Shown one piece after another: positions 19,027-28,712 of a stretch of DNA of 31,509 bases (the stretch's first letter is position 1; the number at the start of each line of letters is the position of its first letter). Below the pieces are notes generated by a model. That model did not search any database. It was given only the letters and a program-made list of their open reading frames with translations, and had not been told where the DNA came from. The translations under genes were made by a program, and so were the position numbers. The stretch comes from a bacterium (lineage in GTDB: Bacteria > Bacillota_I > Bacilli_A > Acholeplasmatales > Acholeplasmataceae): NCBI GenBank assembly GCA_018623895.1, contig JAAZUY010000001.1:1-31509 (forward strand), read 5' to 3'.

Positions 19027-19224
19027 ATGAAAGGCGTAGTTAAATGGTTTGACTCTGACAAAGGATATGGTTTTATATCTTCAGAGGAAGGTAAAGATGT
19101 TTTTGTACACTTTTCAGCTATTCAAGCTGAGGGATACAAATCTCTTCAAGAAGGAGACCAAGTAGAATTTGACGTTAATGATGGTGATCGCGGCCCACAA
19201 GCAGCGAATGTTGTTAAACAATAA
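19027..19224 (+). CDS. Cold-shock domain protein (CspA family), 65 aa
   Basis: KWF, RNP1 KGYGFI, RNP2 DVFVHFSAI and GPQAANV. AAGGAG RBS. Confidence 0.97.
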
Positions 19225-19240: not shown

Positions 19241-19278
19241 CGGGGGGCTGCAATTAAGCGCCCCTCTTCTTTTTTTTA
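19241..19278 (+). terminator. csp intrinsic terminator
   Basis: GC-rich stem GGGGGGC...GCGCCCCTC followed by a T-tract. Confidence 0.75.
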
Positions 19279-19280
19279 TA

Positions 19281-19309
19281 TTGTAATCGCTTTCATTTAT
19301 TGATATAAT
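19281..19309 (+). promoter_or_regulatory. fic sigmaA promoter with a cre-like operator (19281-19296) over the -35
   Basis: TTGTAA-N17-TATAAT with an extended TG. TTGTAATCGCTTTCAT fits the cre consensus TGWAANCGNTNWCA. Confidence 0.7.
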
Positions 19310-19332
19310 TGACATATAATAGGAGATCTTAA

Positions 19333-20064
19333 ATGAAGAAAGATATTTTAGAAATGCAAAAAGTTCATCTTGATAATATAATTAATGAAAGAAAAGATGG
19401 AATTGGTAAAGAAATTGAAGATAAATTTATATTGAATTATACATATGATGCTATTAGTTTAGAAGGCAATAATAGAATTCCATTTGAAGATGTGAAACGA
19501 CTTATAAATAAAAAGATATTTTTGGATTACACGGAGAGAGAGCAAAAAGAAGTTTTAAATCATGTTAACGCATTTTTAAAATTAAAAAGTTTTATAGATC
19601 AAGAGCTTGATTTATCAGAAGAAATGATCAAAGACTTACACGAAATAATAGTTGAAGGAATTTTTCAGGGTGGTTTCTATAGGAATGTAAATATACAATT
19701 AATGGGTTCAATGCATCAACCAACCGATCATGCTAAAGTTTATGATAGAATGCATAAATTATTTACAGAAATAAAAAGCAAAAATTTTAATTCAAAAATT
19801 GAAAAAGCAGTCTATGCTCATGCAGGAATATCTAAAATTCATCCTTTTTTAGACGCAAATGGAAGAGTCGCAAGAATGGTTTTGAATTTTTATCTTATGA
19901 AAGAGGGATATTTACCGATATCAATACCATTCAAAGATAAAATTAAATATATTGAATTGCTTGAAATTTTTAAAATTGAAAAGAATTTAGTTCCTTTAAC
20001 ACAATATTTTAAGGATTTATTAATAAATCGCTATGAAGAAACAATAAATTCATTAGAAGTTTAA
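19333..20064 (+). CDS. Fic-domain protein, class II (N-terminal inhibitory helix)
   Basis: Active-site loop HPFLDANGRVAR (19840-19875) and N-terminal YDAISLEGN. Confidence 0.9.
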   Translation: MKKDILEMQKVHLDNIINERKDGIGKEIEDKFILNYTYDAISLEGNNRIPFEDVKRLINKKIFLDYTEREQKEVLNHVNAFLKLKSFIDQELDLSEEMIKDLHEIIVEGIFQGGFYRNVNIQLMGSMHQPTDHAKVYDRMHKLFTEIKSKNFNSKIEKAVYAHAGISKIHPFLDANGRVARMVLNFYLMKEGYLPISIPFKDKIKYIELLEIFKIEKNLVPLTQYFKDLLINRYEETINSLEV

Positions 20065-20068
20065 AACT

Positions 20069-20095
20069 AAAGTGAGGAAATCTCACTTTTTTTTT
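20069..20095 (+). terminator. fic intrinsic terminator
   Basis: AAAGTGAG-GAAAT-CTCACTTT followed by a T-run. Confidence 0.8.
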
Positions 20096-20123
20096 AGTTA
20101 TGATAAAATATAAATGGTGAATA

Positions 20124-20954
20124 ATGCAAATAGAACCAGGTAGAACATACAATTTTATTGTTGATAGAGAAACAGAAATAAGCTACATTTTGAAATATAA
20201 AGATGAAGAGCTTTTTTTGCACAAAAAAGAAGCCTTTAATATAACAACAGGTATGCACATCAATGCGTTCGTTTATGTTGATTCATATAAAAGAAACGCA
20301 GCCACTATGATGAAACCATTTATTAGCCTTGGAAGTGATTCCTGGCTTGAAGTTAAATCAGTAGTTAGAGAACTAGGTGTTTTTCTTGATATGGGAATAA
20401 ATAAAGATTTAATTCTATCTAAAGAATACTTACCAGAGGATTTTTATCTTTGGCCTAAAATAAATGACTTTTTGTATGTTACTCTTAAATCAAATAAAAG
20501 ACTTTATGCTGACTTTAGTAGAAATTATAGCCTTGAAAATAAATCTTTTACTGGAAATGAAGTTAAAGGACGCGTAATAAAACATCTAAAAGAGGGTATT
20601 AGAATTTTAACAAAGGATTTAATTCCAATATTTGTTTATAAAGATCAATTCTCAAGCCTTCCAAGAATTGGTGAAGAAGTTGAAGTTAAAATAATTAACT
20701 CAACAGAAAAAGGTTTATATGGATCCCTTGAATTGTTCAAAGAGAAAAAAAGAATTTTGGATTCTGAAAAAATCTTGAATGAATTGAAAAAATACGGAAA
20801 AATTAATCTTGACTCAAATAGTACACCTGAATGTATTGAGGAAAAATTCTCTATGAGTAAAAAAGCTTTTAAAAGAGCATTAGGATATTTATATAAAAAA
20901 AGAATTATAAAATTTGAAGATGGGTTAACAATTTATAAGGAGAAAATTGAATGA
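20124..20954 (+). CDS. cvfB: CvfB/YitL-family S1 RNA-binding protein
   Basis: Repeated S1-like segments (VYVDS...AATMMKP, LGVFLDMGINKDLIL) and a C-terminal winged helix (FSMSKKAFKRALGYLYK). Confidence 0.88.
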   Translation: MQIEPGRTYNFIVDRETEISYILKYKDEELFLHKKEAFNITTGMHINAFVYVDSYKRNAATMMKPFISLGSDSWLEVKSVVRELGVFLDMGINKDLILSKEYLPEDFYLWPKINDFLYVTLKSNKRLYADFSRNYSLENKSFTGNEVKGRVIKHLKEGIRILTKDLIPIFVYKDQFSSLPRIGEEVEVKIINSTEKGLYGSLELFKEKKRILDSEKILNELKKYGKINLDSNSTPECIEEKFSMSKKAFKRALGYLYKKRIIKFEDGLTIYKEKIE

Positions 20955-22366
20955 AAAAATATGTTTCAGAAATAACTTCTAAAGATAAAGACTTTGCAAA
21001 ATGGTATACAGATCTTTGTGTTAAAGCAGAGCTGATGAGTTATGGAGATGTCAAAGGATTTATCATCTATAGACCTTATGGGTTTTCTTTATGGGAAAAT
21101 ATTAAAAATTATCTAAATAATGAACTTAAAAAAACTAACCACTCAAATGTTTATTTTCCTATGTTAATTCCAGAAAATTTATTTCAAAAAGAAAAAGATC
21201 ATGTTGATGGTTTTAATCCAGAAGCAGCTGTTGTATCTTCTGTTGGAGATAATAAATTAAATGAAAGATACATTATTAGACCGACTTCTGAGACACTTTT
21301 TTGTACATATTTTTCAAAAATTATTCAGTCTCATAGAGATTTGCCAAAAAAATATAACCAATGGTGCAGTGTTGTAAGGTGGGAAAAAACAACAAGACCT
21401 TTTTTAAGAGGTAAAGAATTTCTTTGGCAAGAAGGCCACACGGCTCATGAAAATTCGATTGAAGCAAAAAGAGAAGCATTAGATGTATTAGATATATATA
21501 AAAAAATGGGTGAGAATTTACTTGCAATACCTTTTTTAACTGGATTAAAGACCCAAAAAGAAAAATTTGCAGGAGCTCTTGAAACCTATTCTTTAGAAGC
21601 ATTAATGCCAGATGGACAGGCCCTTCAGTCTGGTACAACGCATTATTTTGGGCAAGAATTTTCAAAAGCATTTGATATTACTTATACAGATAAAAACAAT
21701 GATGTAAAGTTTGTCCATCAAACTTCATGGGGGGTTTCATCAAGACTTATAGGTGCTTTAATAATGGTACATGGTGATGACAATGGATTAGTTATGCCTC
21801 CAAATGTTGCACCTATTCAGATTAGAATTATTCAAATATCAAATAAACCCGAGGTCATACAAGAAGTTAATAATATTTATTCGGATTTAAAAAACGAATT
21901 CAGAGTTGATATTGATGAAAGTGATAAATCTCCAGGATGGAAATTTTCAGAGCAAGAGATGAAGGGTATACCTTTAAGGATTGAAATAGGACCAAAAGAT
22001 GTAGAAAATAAAACTGTTAATATAGTAAAAAGATATAATGGTGAAAAAATTAAAACGAAAATTAGTGAAATTAAAAGAGAAATCTCTAATATTTTAGAGG
22101 ACATACATCTTGGGATGCTTAAAAAGGCTAAAAAATTTGTTAAAGAAAATACAAAAAAATGTAATAATTATGATGAATTCAAGATGCATATAAAAAATGG
22201 GGGATATGTTGAAATGAGTATTCATCCAGATGCTGAAGAAATTATAAAAAAAGAAACAACAGCAACAGCTAGAATTATTCCATTTGATCAGCCAAAAAAT
22301 TTTGGAATTTGTCCAGTTACAAATAAAAAAGCCGAATTTAAGGTTCTTTTCGCTAGAGCATATTAG
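20951..22366 (+). CDS. proS: Prolyl-tRNA synthetase, short eukaryote/archaea-like type
   Basis: RPTSET, WCSVVRWE, FLRGKEFLWQEGHT, ALQSGTTH, SWGVSSR and C-terminal FARAY. No INS editing domain. Confidence 0.96.
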   Translation: MKKYVSEITSKDKDFAKWYTDLCVKAELMSYGDVKGFIIYRPYGFSLWENIKNYLNNELKKTNHSNVYFPMLIPENLFQKEKDHVDGFNPEAAVVSSVGDNKLNERYIIRPTSETLFCTYFSKIIQSHRDLPKKYNQWCSVVRWEKTTRPFLRGKEFLWQEGHTAHENSIEAKREALDVLDIYKKMGENLLAIPFLTGLKTQKEKFAGALETYSLEALMPDGQALQSGTTHYFGQEFSKAFDITYTDKNNDVKFVHQTSWGVSSRLIGALIMVHGDDNGLVMPPNVAPIQIRIIQISNKPEVIQEVNNIYSDLKNEFRVDIDESDKSPGWKFSEQEMKGIPLRIEIGPKDVENKTVNIVKRYNGEKIKTKISEIKREISNILEDIHLGMLKKAKKFVKENTKKCNNYDEFKMHIKNGGYVEMSIHPDAEEIIKKETTATARIIPFDQPKNFGICPVTNKKAEFKVLFARAY

Positions 22367-22368
22367 AT

Positions 22369-22590
22369 TTATTTTTTCTTTTTGGGTACTGGATCATATT
22401 TTGGTTTAAAAAGAGGATTACAAGTTAAGATTCTCTTTGTAGTTAAAAATGTTCCTAAAATGAAACCAAACCTCTCATAGGCTAAAATTGAATAATTAGA
22501 GCAACTTGGAATATGTCTACATTTGAAATTTTTTTTGTTTGAAATTTTATTTTGATAAAATAATATCATTTTTATTGCAATTTTTTTCAT
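22369..22590 (-). CDS. yidD: Membrane protein insertion efficiency factor YidD
   Basis: CRHIPSCSNY...RILTCNP...YDPVP. ATG 22590 has a GGTG RBS. The ORF track start is 22602. Confidence 0.9.
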   Translation of the reverse strand: MKKIAIKMILFYQNKISNKKNFKCRHIPSCSNYSILAYERFGFILGTFLTTKRILTCNPLFKPKYDPVPKKKK

Positions 22591-22640
22591 ATATAACACC
22601 ATAAATATTATAGCATTTATTATTAGAGTTAAAGAGTTTA

Positions 22641-22674
22641 TGCTATAATATTTTTATAATGAAAACGATTACAT
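22641..22674 (+). promoter_or_regulatory. Extended -10 promoter (22641-22649) and cre-like operator (22659-22674) of the EF-G paralog
   Basis: TG-C-TATAAT followed by ATGAAAACGATTACAT, which fits the cre consensus. Its reverse complement is 14/16 identical to the fic operator. Confidence 0.7.
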
Positions 22675-22686
22675 TGGAGGGTTATA

Positions 22687-24747
22687 ATGAAAGAATATAC
22701 AACTAAAAACATAAGAAATATAGCTATATTAGGACATCAATCATCTGGAAAAACAACACTTGCTGAATCAATTTTATATGTTTCAGGAGCTATTGATAAT
22801 CAAGGTGATGTAGAAGCAAAAAATACTGTTTCAGATTTTTTAAAAGAAGAACAGAATAAACAAAGTAGCTTATCTATGTCATTGCTTCCGTCAGAATTTC
22901 ACAATCATAAATTTAATTTTTTAGATATTCCTGGCTCTGAAGAGTTTGTAGGAGATCTTTATCAAGCTCTTTCAGTTGTAAAAGGAGCAATTATAGTCGT
23001 TGATGCAACTAAGGGAATTGAGGTTGGAACTGAAAGAGTATGGCAAGAAATAAGAAAGAGACATATTCCGGCATTAATTTTTGTAAATAAGATGGATAAA
23101 GAAAATGTAAAATTTGAAAATTTATTAGAAGAAATTCGTACAAAACTTGGAAAAAAAGCTGTTCCATTTTGTTGGCCAATAGGTAAAAATGAAAACTTCG
23201 AGGGCTTTGTAAATATAGTTGAAATGAAAGCTAAAATTTTTGATGGTAAAAAAAGTCAGGATGTTGAAATATGGGAAGAAAAAAAACCTAAGATTGAAGA
23301 ACTAAGAAATATGATGTTAGAAAGTGTGGCGGAGACGTCTGAAGAGTTATTAGAAAAATATTTTTCTGATGAAATATTAACTGAAAAAGAGATAAAAGAT
23401 GGTTTACATAAAGGAGTTGTTGAAGGAGAGTTAACGCCGGTTATAGTTGGCTGTGCTAAAAAATCAATAGGTACCGAAACACTTATCGACATGTTGTTTG
23501 ATTATTTACCTGCACCAAATGAACTTGGACCTGTCTCTTCTAAAAATAAAGAAGGAAAAATAATTAAAGTCACAACTAATGAAGAAAATAAATTTCATGC
23601 TTATGTTTTTAAAACTACTGTAGATCCATTTTTAGGAACAATTAACTATATTAAAATTAAATCTGGAACTTTATCATCTGGAGATGAATTCATTATTTCG
23701 AATAGTGGTGAAGTAAGGAAAGCAACAAATTTATATACACTGAGAGGAAAGCAACAAATTAACATAGGAAAATTTTATGCTGGAGATATTTGTACACTAT
23801 CAAAAATAGATGGTTTAAGTACTGGACTAACAATTAGTGATCCAAAAGAACCTTTGATTTTTGATGCTGTTAAAATTCCAAATCCAATATTATATATTGC
23901 AGTACACCCAAAAAATAAAAACGATGAAGATAAAATATCTGGGGCATTAAGTAGATTAAATCTTGAAGATCCAACATTTCAAATTCAAAGAAACAAGGAA
24001 ACTAAACAATTATTGCTTGGTGGACAAGGGATGACTCATCTAAATTATATTATAGAGAGAATGAAAACCATGTTCAAGGTAGATGTTGATGTTGAATCTC
24101 AAAAAATAGTTTATAGAGAGACAATAAAAAGTAAAGTTGAGGCTGAAGGGAAACATAAAAAACAATCTGGTGGTGCTGGACAGTTTGGACATGTATGGAT
24201 TAGATTTGAACCAAGCAAAGAAAAATTCGTTTTTTCTGAAGAAGTATTTGGAGGATCAGTACCTAGAAATTATTTTCCAGCAGTTGAAAAAGGTTTGATT
24301 GAGACCTTCGAAAATGGTCCTTTAGCAGGATTTCCAGTGATCAATGTTAAAGCAACACTCTATGACGGATCATATCATTCAGTTGATTCTAATGAACTGT
24401 CATTTAAATTGGCTGCAGGATTAGCTTTCAAAAATGCATTTAAGGATGCCAATCCTACAATATTAGAACCAATTGTAAAATTAGAGGTAAAAATTAAAGA
24501 AAAATATGTTGGAGATATTATGGGTGATATGAATAAAAGAAGAGGCAAAGTCATTGGAATGGACCCAAAAAACGATGGCACTCAAGTAATAGATTGTGAA
24601 GTTCCAGAATCTGAAATTGTTTCATATGCTATTGATTTAAAAGCGATGACTCAGGGTTCAGGACAATTCTCTAGAGAATTTATTAGATATGATGAAGTTC
24701 CTAATCATTTAATTAATAAGATTGTGGAGAAATACAAGGATCAATAA
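22687..24747 (+). CDS. Elongation factor G paralog (EF-G2-like) with a degenerate G domain, 686 aa
   Basis: EF-G architecture (NKMD, KKQSGGAGQFG, DGSYHSVDS, ILEP, domain V), but G1 is GHQSSGKTT, switch I is KQSSL and switch II is DIPGSEEF. Not located in an rpsL-rpsG-fusA-tuf operon. Confidence 0.92.
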   Translation: MKEYTTKNIRNIAILGHQSSGKTTLAESILYVSGAIDNQGDVEAKNTVSDFLKEEQNKQSSLSMSLLPSEFHNHKFNFLDIPGSEEFVGDLYQALSVVKGAIIVVDATKGIEVGTERVWQEIRKRHIPALIFVNKMDKENVKFENLLEEIRTKLGKKAVPFCWPIGKNENFEGFVNIVEMKAKIFDGKKSQDVEIWEEKKPKIEELRNMMLESVAETSEELLEKYFSDEILTEKEIKDGLHKGVVEGELTPVIVGCAKKSIGTETLIDMLFDYLPAPNELGPVSSKNKEGKIIKVTTNEENKFHAYVFKTTVDPFLGTINYIKIKSGTLSSGDEFIISNSGEVRKATNLYTLRGKQQINIGKFYAGDICTLSKIDGLSTGLTISDPKEPLIFDAVKIPNPILYIAVHPKNKNDEDKISGALSRLNLEDPTFQIQRNKETKQLLLGGQGMTHLNYIIERMKTMFKVDVDVESQKIVYRETIKSKVEAEGKHKKQSGGAGQFGHVWIRFEPSKEKFVFSEEVFGGSVPRNYFPAVEKGLIETFENGPLAGFPVINVKATLYDGSYHSVDSNELSFKLAAGLAFKNAFKDANPTILEPIVKLEVKIKEKYVGDIMGDMNKRRGKVIGMDPKNDGTQVIDCEVPESEIVSYAIDLKAMTQGSGQFSREFIRYDEVPNHLINKIVEKYKDQ

Positions 24748-24780
24748 AATAAAAGATGCTAATTAGCATCTTTTATTTTA
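24745..24780. terminator. Bidirectional terminator, perfect 36-bp palindrome
   Basis: TAAAATAAAAGATGCTAA|TTAGCATCTTTTATTTTA. It contains both convergent stop codons. Confidence 0.85.
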
Positions 24781-26516
24781 TCAATAAGATTAATAACTCT
24801 TGTTATGTTTTCTTTAATAATTCTAAATGAGTTATTCCAAAAAGTTTCAGAGTTTAAATCAATTCCGATTTTTTTTGAAACTTCTTCAATTGAATCTTTA
24901 GGAGTGAATTGTAAAAAAATCTCATAATCACTGGTAAATTGAGTTGGATTTTCTTTATATTTTGTAAATAAGGCTTTTCCAAACAATAGTCCAAATGCAT
25001 ATGGGAAGTTATAAAAATTATATTCAGCATCATAGTAATGAGATTTAATTAACCACATATAGGGATGCAAAACATCCTTATCAAGACCATCTAAGTAAGC
25101 TTTTTTTTGAGATTCCTTCATCCATAAATTAATGTCTTCAACATTTAACGGCTTATTAGCCTCATCGAATAATTTTGATTCAAAGTAATATCTAGATAAT
25201 ATATCTATAATTACTTGAGTATTATCCTGTAGTTCATTTTCTAATATATTTAATAACTCATTATCATTTTTAACATTATTAATTAAAAACTCATTGACTA
25301 TAGATTCACAAAAAATCGAAGCAGTTTCTGCTAGAGGCATTGGATAATCCCAATTCAGAGGTGTATTCCTGCTTATCATTTCTCCATGAAATCCATGACC
25401 TAGCTCATGTGCTAACGTTAAAACATCAGAAAGAGTACCTGTGAAATTCACTAAAATCCTTGATTGATTAATTTGTGGCAAATTATCACAAAATGCTCCT
25501 CCAACTTTTCCTTTTCTTGGAGAAATATCTATCCACTTATTTTCAAATGCTTTTTTTGCAAAATCACCTAGATTATTACTAAAGTTATAAAATGCACTTA
25601 GAATAATTTTTTTTGCTTCTTCAAATGAATATTTTTTTGTTACTTCTCCAATAGGAGCAAAAAGATCATAAAATGGGAGACCATTAGAATGACCAAGATA
25701 ATTTGATTTCTTTTTAAGATAGATTGAAAAATAATTTCTATGATTTTCAATTGAATTGATAAGTAGTTCCAAAGTTTTACTTGACATTCTGTTGTTTATT
25801 AGTGTAGGTTCAAAGATAGTTTCATAACCCCTCAATGAATTCACCATGTTAACTTGACGCTTGATATTTGTTAATGCTAAAGCTACATATTCCTCAACAG
25901 ATTTTAACGCTTTAATTTCAGCTTCGAAGGCGTCTTTTCTAATTTTTTGATCTTTATTGTAAGCAAGATTTCTTATTTCAGATAAAGTTAATTTTTTATT
26001 TTGAAAATCAATTTCAATATTTGATGTCACGATCTCTTGAAGTTGCTCCCAAGAATCACTTGCCAATAAAGTCATTTTTTCTAATAACTCCTCTAAATCC
26101 TCGCTTAATAAAAATTTGCTTTCAAGTTGAACTTTATTTAAATGATATAAATTTTCAAAAATTACTTTACTTTTATGTTTCATTTTATCAAGATCAATAT
26201 CTGATATGTGTCTTTTAAATTTGACGTAATCTTTGGTGAGAGAAATCAAAAGCTCCTCAACTTTTAGATTAAACGTCATGGGTGTTTTATCATTGACATT
26301 AGTACAAAATCTTAAATTCGCATAAGAGTATAAATTGTTTGTGATTCTCTCAATTTTTTCAGATATAAATACATATTTTTCAAGTAAATCTATGTCACTT
26401 AAAATATACATTTCGGAAACTAATTTTTTGAATTCTTTAACAAAATTTTCCAGTTTAGCGAAGTCTTTTAAATACGAGTCATCAAATTCTTTGTAAAGAT
26501 CATCTAAATTCCACAC
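24759..26516 (-). CDS. pepF: Oligoendopeptidase F (M3B family)
   Basis: WNLDDLY N-terminus, GKVGGAFC, HELGH zinc motif, LAETASIFCE and FYNFPYAFG. GTG 26516 follows GGGGGAG. The ORF track start is 26543. Confidence 0.92.
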   Translation of the reverse strand: MWNLDDLYKEFDDSYLKDFAKLENFVKEFKKLVSEMYILSDIDLLEKYVFISEKIERITNNLYSYANLRFCTNVNDKTPMTFNLKVEELLISLTKDYVKFKRHISDIDLDKMKHKSKVIFENLYHLNKVQLESKFLLSEDLEELLEKMTLLASDSWEQLQEIVTSNIEIDFQNKKLTLSEIRNLAYNKDQKIRKDAFEAEIKALKSVEEYVALALTNIKRQVNMVNSLRGYETIFEPTLINNRMSSKTLELLINSIENHRNYFSIYLKKKSNYLGHSNGLPFYDLFAPIGEVTKKYSFEEAKKIILSAFYNFSNNLGDFAKKAFENKWIDISPRKGKVGGAFCDNLPQINQSRILVNFTGTLSDVLTLAHELGHGFHGEMISRNTPLNWDYPMPLAETASIFCESIVNEFLINNVKNDNELLNILENELQDNTQVIIDILSRYYFESKLFDEANKPLNVEDINLWMKESQKKAYLDGLDKDVLHPYMWLIKSHYYDAEYNFYNFPYAFGLLFGKALFTKYKENPTQFTSDYEIFLQFTPKDSIEEVSKKIGIDLNSETFWNNSFRIIKENITRVINLIDKIKDAN

Positions 26517-26530
26517 TTTTCTCCCCCAAT

Positions 26531-26560
26531 AAAAAAAACACACACATTTGTGCGTGCTTT
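26531..26560 (-). terminator. sodA intrinsic terminator
   Basis: Minus strand AAAGCACGCAC-AAAT-GTGTGTGTTTTTTTT. Confidence 0.75.
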
Positions 26561-26564
26561 AAAA

Positions 26565-27164
26565 TTATTTTTCAGCATATCTTTTTTCGATTAAATCCCA
26601 GTCAATAATCGAAAAGAATGCAGAGACGTAATCCGGTCTTCTATTTTGATAATTAAGGTAATATGCATGTTCCCAAACATCAAGACCTAAAATAGGCTTA
26701 CCCAAATTTAATGGTGTATCTTGATTAGGTGTTGAAGTGACATGTAATTCTCCTGAATCGTCTAAAATGAGCCATGCCCATCCAGAACCAAATCGAGTTC
26801 CCGCAGCTTTAGAAAACTCTTTTTTAAAATTATCATACGAACCAAATTTGTTATTTAGAGCTTCAAGCAAATCACCTCTAGGACTACCTTGATTGTTAAT
26901 TTTTAACTGTGGCCAGAATAATGAATGATTAAAATGACCTCCTCCATTATTTCTAACTGCATTTCTAACCCCCTCAGGTAGAACAGACAAATTCTTAAGC
27001 ATCTCTTCAAGTGAAAGACCTAAATCTTTTTGACCTTCAAGTGCAGCATTAAGTTTGTTGACATATCCTTGATGGTGTTTAGAATAATGAATTTCCATAG
27101 TTTTTCTATCTATAAATGGTTCTAAAGAATCAAAACTATAATTTAATTTTGGTAAAGTAAACAT
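26565..27164 (-). CDS. sodA: Superoxide dismutase, Mn-type signature
   Basis: [30 protein letters not shown] and DVWEHAYY. The GG and Q signature positions indicate Mn type. Confidence 0.95.
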
Positions 27165-27184
27165 AAAATTCCTCCATTTTTTAA

Positions 27185-27213
27185 ATTTTAAATTATTTAA
27201 GATTTATTTTCAA
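27185..27213 (-). promoter_or_regulatory. sigmaA promoter for sodA, overlapping the rqcH stop
   Basis: Minus strand TTGAAA-N17-TAAAAT. A GGAGG RBS lies downstream. Confidence 0.6.
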
Positions 27214-28712
27214 TCTTTATACTTATTATCCCATATATTAACAAATTTTTCATCTAAATTCACTAATAAAGTTTTGTATTTTGTAAGCATAACTTTTGAA
27301 CCATGTATACCTGGAATTTTCTTAACATTTTTTTTCATTGTATAGTTTATTGGAATATTTTTACTGTACTTCAATTTAGAATGAAAAGCAGCAAGTTTTG
27401 CAGCAGTATTAAAACCTTGACTTAGAATATTTCCTCTATATATAACGTGGGATCCTTGTGCGTCTTTAACATGAAAAAAATAGTCTTTTGGTTTGGCTAT
27501 TTTATGTGTTACTATATTATTTTGATAAGCATTTTTACCTAAAAAGATAACATAATCTTGTTCTGAAATCTCAACATATTTTTTTAATTTAGTTTTATTT
27601 TTGTTCTTAATTTTTGTAAATTGTAAATTCTTCTCTAATAGTACTTTGTCTAATTCATCGGATGTTATAGTATTAGTTTCAATATTAAATACAAGACTAT
27701 TAAAAAAATCAATTTCATTATTTGTGATTTCTATTTGTTCTTTAATTTTAAGAATTGCTCTTTTTGCTTTTTTATATTTTTTAAATTTTAAATTAATATT
27801 GTCAATAATTCTAATTTTAGGATTTAATTTTATTCCATATAGATTTTCTCTTTTTAATTTAATGTTTTCAAATCTTAATAGATTTTCTGCTTCTTTTTGA
27901 AGTTTAAAGTTATTTTTATTATTATCTATCTCATTATTAAGTTTGATTAGTTTATTTGATTTCAATTTTATAACGTAATTAATTTTTTTCAGATATTTAT
28001 TAAGTGGTTTAGTCTTATTAAATTCATATTTCATTATTTCGTTAATTGAAGAGAATCTTTTTCCTCCATCCTTATCAAATAATGATAATTTATTCTTAAA
28101 TATAGAGGGAGAAACATTGATTTCAAGAGGTAAAACTTGATATTCATAAATTTCTCTTGAAGTTTCTGGAGAGAGTCCCTCATATTTTTCAAATATTTCT
28201 ACAGGCGAAGATGGGATTTTTTTCATCTCTGTAAAAGGAATCTTTCTTGATTCATGAAACTTAAAAATTTTTCTGGTATCAGTATTTTTTCCCCTATATT
28301 TACCTAATAAGTTGTATGCTTTATCCGTAAGGTATGCGTTAGAATTTTTACCCATGAATTCTAATATTAAATAATGAGATTTATTTAAATTATATGTAGA
28401 TTCTTGATGAAATTCTAAAATTAGAACACGATCACTATTGTATTGCTGAATAGAGACTATCCTTGAACGCAAAAGGTGCTTTTTCAATAATAATAAAAAA
28501 TTTATTTCATGATTTTTTTCATTATTAACATAATCTATATGAAATCGATTACTCTGAGGACTTAAATCTACTTTTAGAAAAAAAACTTTTTTGTTATAAA
28601 CTTCAAAAATAAATTTTTTATTATTATAATAAATTTTGTTGATTTTACTATTAATTATTTTTGGCTTTAACTCTCTTATTAAGTAATATAACATCAATCC
28701 ATCAAATGACAT
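27210..28712 (-). CDS. rqcH: NFACT-family ribosome quality control protein (RqcH/FbpA/PavA), 500 aa
   Basis: MSFDG N-terminus, DR and EFMG motifs, coiled coil, and NFACT-R GKNAYQN...FHVKDAQGSHV. Confidence 0.88.
   Translation of the reverse strand: MSFDGLMLYYLIRELKPKIINSKINKIYYNNKKFIFEVYNKKVFFLKVDLSPQSNRFHIDYVNNEKNHEINFLLLLKKHLLRSRIVSIQQYNSDRVLILEFHQESTYNLNKSHYLILEFMGKNSNAYLTDKAYNLLGKYRGKNTDTRKIFKFHESRKIPFTEMKKIPSSPVEIFEKYEGLSPETSREIYEYQVLPLEINVSPSIFKNKLSLFDKDGGKRFSSINEIMKYEFNKTKPLNKYLKKINYVIKLKSNKLIKLNNEIDNNKNNFKLQKEAENLLRFENIKLKRENLYGIKLNPKIRIIDNINLKFKKYKKAKRAILKIKEQIEITNNEIDFFNSLVFNIETNTITSDELDKVLLEKNLQFTKIKNKNKTKLKKYVEISEQDYVIFLGKNAYQNNIVTHKIAKPKDYFFHVKDAQGSHVIYRGNILSQGFNTAAKLAAFHSKLKYSKNIPINYTMKKNVKKIPGIHGSKVMLTKYKTLLVNLDEKFVNIWDNKYKD

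Follow-up and report, generated by a model that had tools for sequence, protein, structure and literature searches.

Why should a gene for a Fic enzyme and a gene for a paralog of elongation factor G (EF-G) carry nearly the same palindromic box in their promoter regions? The question is raised by a stretch of 31,509 nucleotides (contig JAAZUY010000001.1 of assembly GCA_018623895.1, the whole of which is called the window here), which corresponds to contig C17 of a marine Acholeplasmataceae metagenome-assembled genome (MAG) of 614 kb in 89 contigs, 68% complete and with 28.5% G+C. An earlier inspection of the letters of the window, the sequence-only reading, had proposed that both boxes are operators of the catabolite-responsive element (cre) type and that they join fic and the EF-G paralog (EF-G2 below) in a dedicated regulon for the remodelling of translation during carbon starvation. 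Our analysis suggests that the boxes are probably operators of the repressor CcpA, through which EF-G2 and fic would be repressed in the presence of sugar and derepressed upon carbon limitation.

The two 16-mers on which the proposal was based, TTGTAATCGCTTTCAT at 19281-19296 and ATGAAAACGATTACAT at 22659-22674, were confirmed at these coordinates, and the reverse complement of ATGAAAACGATTACAT was found to be identical to TTGTAATCGCTTTCAT at 14 of 16 positions. Each harbors a 14-bp pseudo-palindrome with a central CG that fits the consensus TGWAANCGNTNWCA with 0 mismatches (boxes 1 and 2; Table 1). The window has no other match to this consensus, in line with the earlier statement that no other intergenic match was seen; none was generated in 100 dinucleotide shuffles, and both one-mismatch matches of the window, at 1243 and 28540, fall within genes. 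The positions of the two boxes are also of the repressing kind that had been assigned to them, when judged against transcription starts that are deduced rather than mapped: (i) box 1 covers the -35 element and spacer of the fic promoter, which is the best promoter match of the region (10/12 with TG) and is kept in its layout across the genus; and (ii) box 2 is located in the EF-G2 leader between the extended -10 element and the ribosome-binding site (RBS). Since fic is transcribed from a promoter of its own and is followed by a terminator, it is monocistronic, and box 1 would control fic alone. When the whole assembly was scanned, three strict sites were detected in 614 kb compared with 0.7 +/- 0.6 expected from 20 first-order Markov simulations, and all three were in promoters. 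A weight matrix derived from the sites of the genus scored these three sites at 18.7-20.5 bits, with box 1 as the top site of the assembly (20.5 bits) and box 2 at 18.7 bits, while the next best site reached 14.7 bits. It could be argued that such matches are meaningless, as an AT-rich promoter with a -35 element of the form TTGNAA mimics one half of a cre by chance, and box 1, the box of a rhodopsin gene (the third strict site) and the box of ccpA do all start inside a -35 hexamer. This explanation appears extremely unlikely to us, as box 2 is not in a -35 element, the strict matches expected are 0.7 per genome compared with the three of three observed in promoters, the gap in score between 18.7 and 14.7 bits is wide, and the right half-site and central CG of the cre are kept where the flanks diverge.

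Conservation of the boxes was examined upstream of orthologous genes, as the sequence-only reading had recommended. In an alignment of 11 non-identical EF-G2 upstream regions from the genus and from other genera, the conserved blocks comprised TG-n-TATAAT, TG-AA-CG-TT-CA, and the RBS, and nothing else. Of 24 EF-G2 orthologous loci of several families, 19 were found to have, 17-28 nt 5' of the start codon, a box of at least 13 bits, a score reached by the top 1% of upstream regions in the window's genome; no high-scoring box was detected upstream of canonical fusA in the three loci examined. Strict or one-mismatch boxes precede EF-G2 in most of the named Acholeplasmataceae records and also in Anaeroplasma and Pelethenecus; Paracholeplasma vituli (locus L077) has TGAAACCGATTTCA at -28, and the Haloplasmataceae and Izemoplasmatales have TGAAAGCG(C/T)TTTA-type variants at the equivalent position. 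Most EF-G2 loci of the Tissierellia and Clostridia were found to have no strict or one-mismatch cre upstream, and thus the association of cre with EF-G2 is not general to the Bacillota. For fic, a strict cre overlapping the -35 element was present at the identical place in all 10 of the genus genomes. Taken with the scores, these patterns identify both sites as predicted cre-type operators, a prediction that is well supported for EF-G2 and, within the genus, for fic.

The proteins needed to operate such boxes are encoded elsewhere in the assembly. A CcpA orthologue was identified on contig C37 (13657-14652), with the CcpA proteins of Bacillus subtilis and B. megaterium as its best solved relatives (1.5e-69, compared with 1.7e-26 or worse for other LacI-family proteins); among NCBIfam models, TIGR01481 matches it best by a wide margin but scores under the equivalog cut-off. 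An HPr kinase (HPrK) is encoded on contig C79, and two HPr genes carry the Ser46 motif LKSI(M/L). The genome is thus not devoid of a LacI-family regulator, and the search for CcpA/LacI proteins and HPrK that had been advised returned CcpA, HPrK, and both HPr proteins. The novelty that had been tentatively suggested for Mollicutes does not extend to the regulator, as a CcpA homologue of the Acholeplasmatales has already been described in Acholeplasma laidlawii (PMC5138195). A one-mismatch cre, TGAAAGCCTTTTCA, was also found at 13603-13616 of contig C37 (1435-1448 of locus L001), where it overlaps the -35 element of the promoter of ccpA itself and suggests autoregulation. The second HPr-like gene (locus L005, G000:C37, 1498-1743; 81 aa) lies between pgk and tpiA and keeps His15 and Ser46, with the His15 motif reading GLHASLA instead of GLHARPA; its product may be a Crh-like co-repressor embedded in a glycolytic operon.

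A second LacI-family gene is present on contig C59, and the central CG is common to LacI-family operators, so that the boxes might be bound by a different LacI-family regulator that answers a specific sugar, or might be relics that no longer affect regulation. However, the C59 regulator has in its divergent promoter region, beside a gene for an ATP-binding cassette (ABC) solute-binding protein, two inverted copies of a shorter operator, GTATCGTTAC (locus L002, 1678-1691 and 1765-1778), whose half-site spacing is shorter than that of cre. As the operator type differs, the boxes at fic and EF-G2 are not of the C59 type. They instead match the boxes before sugar genes and ccpA, and their conservation across families speaks against relics. 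We therefore regard both versions of this explanation as very unlikely and retain CcpA as the probable regulator.

The distribution of the motif in the genus was examined in order to place fic and EF-G2 among the genes that may share this control. Ten strict sites were detected in a more complete genome of the genus (G001, 91% complete), in which the reversed control motif gave 1; apart from those at fic and EF-G2, they are upstream of genes for a pullulanase, an ABC sugar permease, solute-binding proteins, and a rhodopsin. The third strict box of the window's genome, TGAAAGCGCTGTCA at 1277-1290 of contig C18 (locus L162), lies over the -35 element (TTGACA) of a rhodopsin gene at 446-1228 on the minus strand and is common to G001 (locus L158) and G008. 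This rhodopsin has an N-D-Q motif and, among solved structures, is nearest to the sodium-pumping rhodopsins (KR2, 1e-61); a Na+ pump that is driven by light and subject to predicted catabolite repression seems noteworthy by itself. Thus, fic and EF-G2 are, as far as the motif can tell, not a private regulon of two translation-remodelling genes, as had been supposed, but predicted members of a wider CcpA regulon that includes sugar-uptake genes, pullulanase, and rhodopsin. In the pullulanase promoter region (locus L156, G001:C1, about 1440-1515; locus L140, G008) one strict and two near-cre boxes stand in tandem (TGTAAACGCTTTAG, TGAAACCGATTGCA, and TGTAATCGCTAACA). A further one-mismatch cre, TGAAAACGGTTTTA (locus L163, G000:C68, 2848-2861), was noted 57 nt 5' of a gene of the phosphotransferase system EIIA(Glc) type and directly 3' of a major facilitator superfamily transporter gene.

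From the motifs, their positions and conservation, and the regulator genes, we infer binding by CcpA and the direction of regulation. When a preferred sugar is plentiful, HPrK would phosphorylate Ser46 of HPr, and the complex of CcpA and HPr-Ser-P would bind boxes 1 and 2; at box 1, CcpA would occlude the -35 element of the fic promoter, and at box 2 it would block RNA polymerase at the EF-G2 gene during promoter clearance or early elongation. Under low carbon, fic and EF-G2 would be derepressed together with the sugar-uptake, pullulanase, and light-driven sodium-pump genes that carry the same type of box in the genus, and EF-G2, as a spare translocase that has no catalytic His, would probably sustain slow and GTP-sparing translation under carbon limitation. 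This scheme resembles the CcpA/cre repression of Bacillota (B. subtilis type) in the fit to TGWAANCGNTNWCA, in box positions over the -35 element or just 3' of the start, in the set of CcpA orthologue, HPrK, and HPr-Ser46, and in the presence of the same motif before carbohydrate genes and ccpA. It differs in its targets, which are a paralogous translation factor, a Fic enzyme, and, at another place in the genome, a rhodopsin of the sodium-pumping type, all of them absent from the three-operon regulon described for A. laidlawii (PMC5138195). That report does not mention EF-G2, Fic, or rhodopsin, the supplements to it that were examined hold no list of the CcpA regulon, and a literature search found no link between CcpA and EF-G2 or an EF-G paralog.

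The EF-G2 protein was then analysed for its subfamily and its likely activity. Five Pfam domains were detected (GTP_EFTU, EF-G_D2, EFG_III, EFG_IV, and EFG_C), and the G motifs read GHQSSGKT (G1), KQSSL (G2), DIPGS84 (G3), and NKMD (G4), with Ser84 in place of the catalytic His. Across 17 orthologues, S61, D80, P82, and G83 are invariant, while the catalytic-His position varies across this EF-G2 family (S, N, T, I, A, or Y). NCBIfam NF009381 scored 881 bits; the match to NF058620 covers only residues 1-512 at 603 bits, under the cut-off of 1000. The best solved match of residues 1-139 was to 7uvp/8dmf, with AKNTVSD (switch I) common to both and DIPGSEEFVG here corresponding to DCPGSDDFVG there; we take 7uvp to be EF-G2 of Bacteroides thetaiotaomicron (BT2167). 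The signature described for EFG II consists of G1 GHxxxGKT, a G2 RGITI relaxed to xxxSx, and retained DxPG and NKxD, in species that have a canonical EFG I alongside (Margus, Remm and Tenson 2011, PMC3150367). By these motifs the window's EF-G2 is an ordinary member of EFG II, with no structural difference from the subfamily, within which activities vary in that the Thermus member hydrolyses GTP and the mycobacterial and Bacteroides members do not. Relatives of the window's genome have a second, canonical EF-G that adjoins tuf and is 36-38% identical to EF-G2, and the closest named EF-G orthologue records are Acholeplasmataceae MAGs. Mycobacterial EF-G2, which has Tyr at the catalytic-His position, is without GTPase activity, and the H88Y change abolishes the activity of mycobacterial EF-G1, according to the literature. 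With Ser84 at this position, EF-G2 of the window is likely to be GTPase-inactive.

Several observations weigh against this account of the two genes. Thermus EF-G2, which also belongs to EFG II, is reported in the literature to keep its GTPase activity, so that loss of GTPase activity is not readable from EFG II membership alone. No canonical fusA was detected in the assembly, which is 68% complete, and the status of EF-G2 as a paralog is based on its relatives; assembly incompleteness is the most likely reason for the missing gene. The published CcpA regulon of A. laidlawii consists of only three carbohydrate operons (PMC5138195). Finally, the fic box is weak outside the genus (10-12 bits at the identical place in G016, G025, and G029), and six of ten other genera examined have no fic box. 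The recommended footprinting was thus clearly positive for EF-G2 and, within the genus, for fic, but beyond the genus it gave weak or no support for fic. The pattern indicates that the predicted cre control of fic is largely limited to this genus and is young, while that of EF-G2 would be old.

A functional parallel is found in B. thetaiotaomicron. In that species no gene is induced more strongly by carbon limitation than that of EF-G2, which is also required for gut colonisation. Its fusA2 transcript increases 238-fold on carbon limitation through activation by BT4338, whose consensus is wwwTATGTTnTAnAACATAwww (PMC6989115). The window's EF-G2 and that of B. thetaiotaomicron (fusA2, BT2167) are alike in their EFG II subfamily, in switch I (AKNTVSD), in the His-to-Ser change, and in the tie of the gene to a master regulator of carbon metabolism. 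They differ in their C-terminal halves, which diverge, and in their circuits, with activation by BT4338/Cur there and a predicted release from a LacI-type repressor, bound at a cre, here. Upstream of the window's EF-G2 there is no BT4338-type site but a palindrome of the cre type, placed where it would repress, and the circuit is alike in its working without being a member of that system. The convergence postulated by the sequence-only reading is therefore to be revised: based on the shared family and substitution, the window's EF-G2 is homologous to the Bacteroides factor rather than convergent with it, and the analogous part would be the wiring to a carbon master regulator, with only the regulator differing. 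EFG II paralogs are widespread, and their role has been established by experiment in few species only. In an unrelated phylum, a homologous EF-G2 would here be tied to the master regulator of carbon use by the opposite logic (derepression rather than activation), and the preservation of the tie across several families supports the view of EFG II as a general low-carbon translation factor. The findings would also extend the very small CcpA regulon of Acholeplasma beyond carbohydrate genes and make Fic and the sodium-pumping rhodopsin candidates for a role in one starvation response.

The Fic enzyme was examined for its class and for a connection to EF-G2. Its catalytic motif HPFLDANGR (residues 170-178) fits HxFx(D/E)(G/A)N(G/K)R, and H170, F172, D174, N176, and R178 are invariant across 16 orthologues. 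The N-terminal motif A40-I-S-L-E44-G45-N has Ala as its first residue when compared with (S/T)xxxE(G/N). The nearest solved relative is FICD (1e-12), and E44 was aligned with FICD E234, the inhibitory and de-AMPylating Glu; in one orthologue this Glu is Gln, and in two more the motif is disturbed. The enzyme therefore resembles the class II Fic enzymes (FICD/HYPE and SoFic) in its Fic fold, its catalytic motif, and the N-terminal Glu followed by Gly-Asn, and differs from them in that it is much shorter (243 aa), has no tetratricopeptide repeat or winged helix-turn-helix domain, and starts its inhibitory motif with Ala rather than Ser/Thr. On these features Fic is best described as a putative self-inhibited AMP-transferase or de-AMPylase that is a co-regulated member of the predicted regulon and not a proven partner of EF-G2.

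Linkage of the two genes was surveyed in 150 genomes of the order. In nearly all genomes of families f1 and f4 that have both genes on one contig, fic was found 5' of EF-G2 on the same strand at a distance of 2.3-18.5 kb, with G014 alone having them far apart. In a genome of a third family (G022, family f5; locus L056, G022:C2), fic (1441-2172) and EF-G2 (from 2183) are separated by a 10-nt gap, with the RBS of EF-G2 over the fic stop codon, in an apparent two-gene operon that sits behind cre-like TAAAAGCGTTTACA (1376-1389) and TGTTAGAAT. These arrangements would suit a coupled module in which Fic acts on a translational GTPase (EF-G2, canonical EF-G, or EF-Tu), and in which carbon limitation switches on a spare translocase along with an enzyme that re-tunes the translation machinery; in the same direction, the class II enzyme SoFic modifies T62 and T65 in switch I of EF-Tu by AMPylation (bioRxiv 10.64898/2026.07.09.737422), and switch I of EF-G2 has invariant Ser and Asp residues. 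However, of two sister families, f2 has EF-G2 in 50 of 61 genomes and Fic in only 1 of 61, f3 has them in 5/5 and 0/5, and the complete genome G091 has Fic and no EF-G2 match. In records of the Haloplasmataceae, Izemoplasmatales, and Clostridia, no Fic gene was detected closer than 4 kb to EF-G2, FICD as the nearest solved relative targets an Hsp70 chaperone, and linked genes in small, related genomes can owe their order to common descent. A complex prediction with the Fic alignment and the EF-G2 G-domain alignment returned a score of 0.00, which is no answer and counts neither way. The coupled module is doubtful, and a functional link between Fic and EF-G2 is only suggested by gene order. In one complete genome the Fic orthologue appears broken (G066:C1:303694-304418; an internal TGA, with the match split in two), and EF-G2, 3.5 kb 3' of it, is intact.

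A more far-reaching possibility, which we consider unlikely, is that marine Acholeplasmataceae possess a starvation programme under CcpA in which a GTP-sparing EF-G2 would be combined with a Fic enzyme that AMPylates or de-AMPylates a translational GTPase (EF-G, EF-Tu, or EF-G2) for the handover and with a light-driven sodium pump for power. If this were true, EFG II would serve generally as a translocase for carbon starvation, which two phyla would have placed independently under unrelated master regulators, and it would have a dedicated post-translational switch. The features of the locus are listed in Table 1.

Table 1. Features of the fic and EF-G2 region (positions in the window)
Feature	Position	Strand	Remarks
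cspA (cold-shock protein)	19027-19224	+	Pfam CSD 8e-31; upstream neighbour of fic
cspA terminator	hairpin 19242-19266, T-run to 19278	+	stops just 5' of the fic promoter; sequence reading
fic promoter	19281-19309	+	-35 TTGTAA 19281-19286, 17-nt spacer, extended -10 TG-a-TATAAT 19301-19309
Predicted cre box 1, TGTAATCGCTTTCA	19282-19295	.	overlaps -35 and spacer of the fic promoter
fic	19333-20064	+	243 aa, class II-like Fic enzyme; Pfam Fic 3.4e-19
Intrinsic terminator 3' of fic	20069-20099	+	9-bp stem, then T-run
cvfB	20124-20954	+	Pfam CvfB domains; with proS a separate unit between fic and EF-G2
proS	20951-22366	+	Pfam ProRS core, anticodon-binding, and C-terminal domains
yidD	22369-22602	-	77 aa; Pfam YidD 1.3e-22; divergent from EF-G2
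EF-G2 promoter, extended -10 TGCTATAAT	22641-22649	+	TG-n-TATAAT invariant in 11 aligned orthologous upstream regions
Predicted cre box 2, TGAAAACGATTACA	22660-22673	.	about +5 to +18 from the deduced transcription start, directly 5' of the RBS
EF-G2 RBS, GGAGGG	22676-22681	+	start ATG at 22687
EF-G paralog, assigned to EFG II (EF-G2) subfamily	22687-24747	+	686 aa; five Pfam EF-G domains

Genes of the genome were read in genetic code 11, which is consistent with Acholeplasmataceae; code 4, considered on account of the word Mollicutes in the earlier reading, was set aside, as code 11 yields the same genes, stopping at TGA. Near-identical DNA was found to be present in seawater and marine metagenomes of many studies. 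Marine metatranscriptome contigs (three studies, three to four runs) include fragments of fic (19266-20066) and of EF-G2 (starting at 22686-22734), which indicates only that these sequences are present in RNA libraries; a contig break at the fic terminator (19266-20066 compared with 20117-21702) is a weak hint only. On the 3' side, EF-G2 is followed by pepF, sodA, and an NFACT/RqcH gene on the minus strand. Genes for translation and proteostasis were observed to crowd around EF-G2 (window 20124-28712), including cvfB, proS, yidD, pepF (M3 peptidase), sodA, and the NFACT/RqcH ribosome-quality-control gene. The divergent yidD has an extended -10 element of its own (TGCTATAAT or TGTTATAAT, minus strand) that is kept across the genus and forms a conserved block in the upstream alignment.

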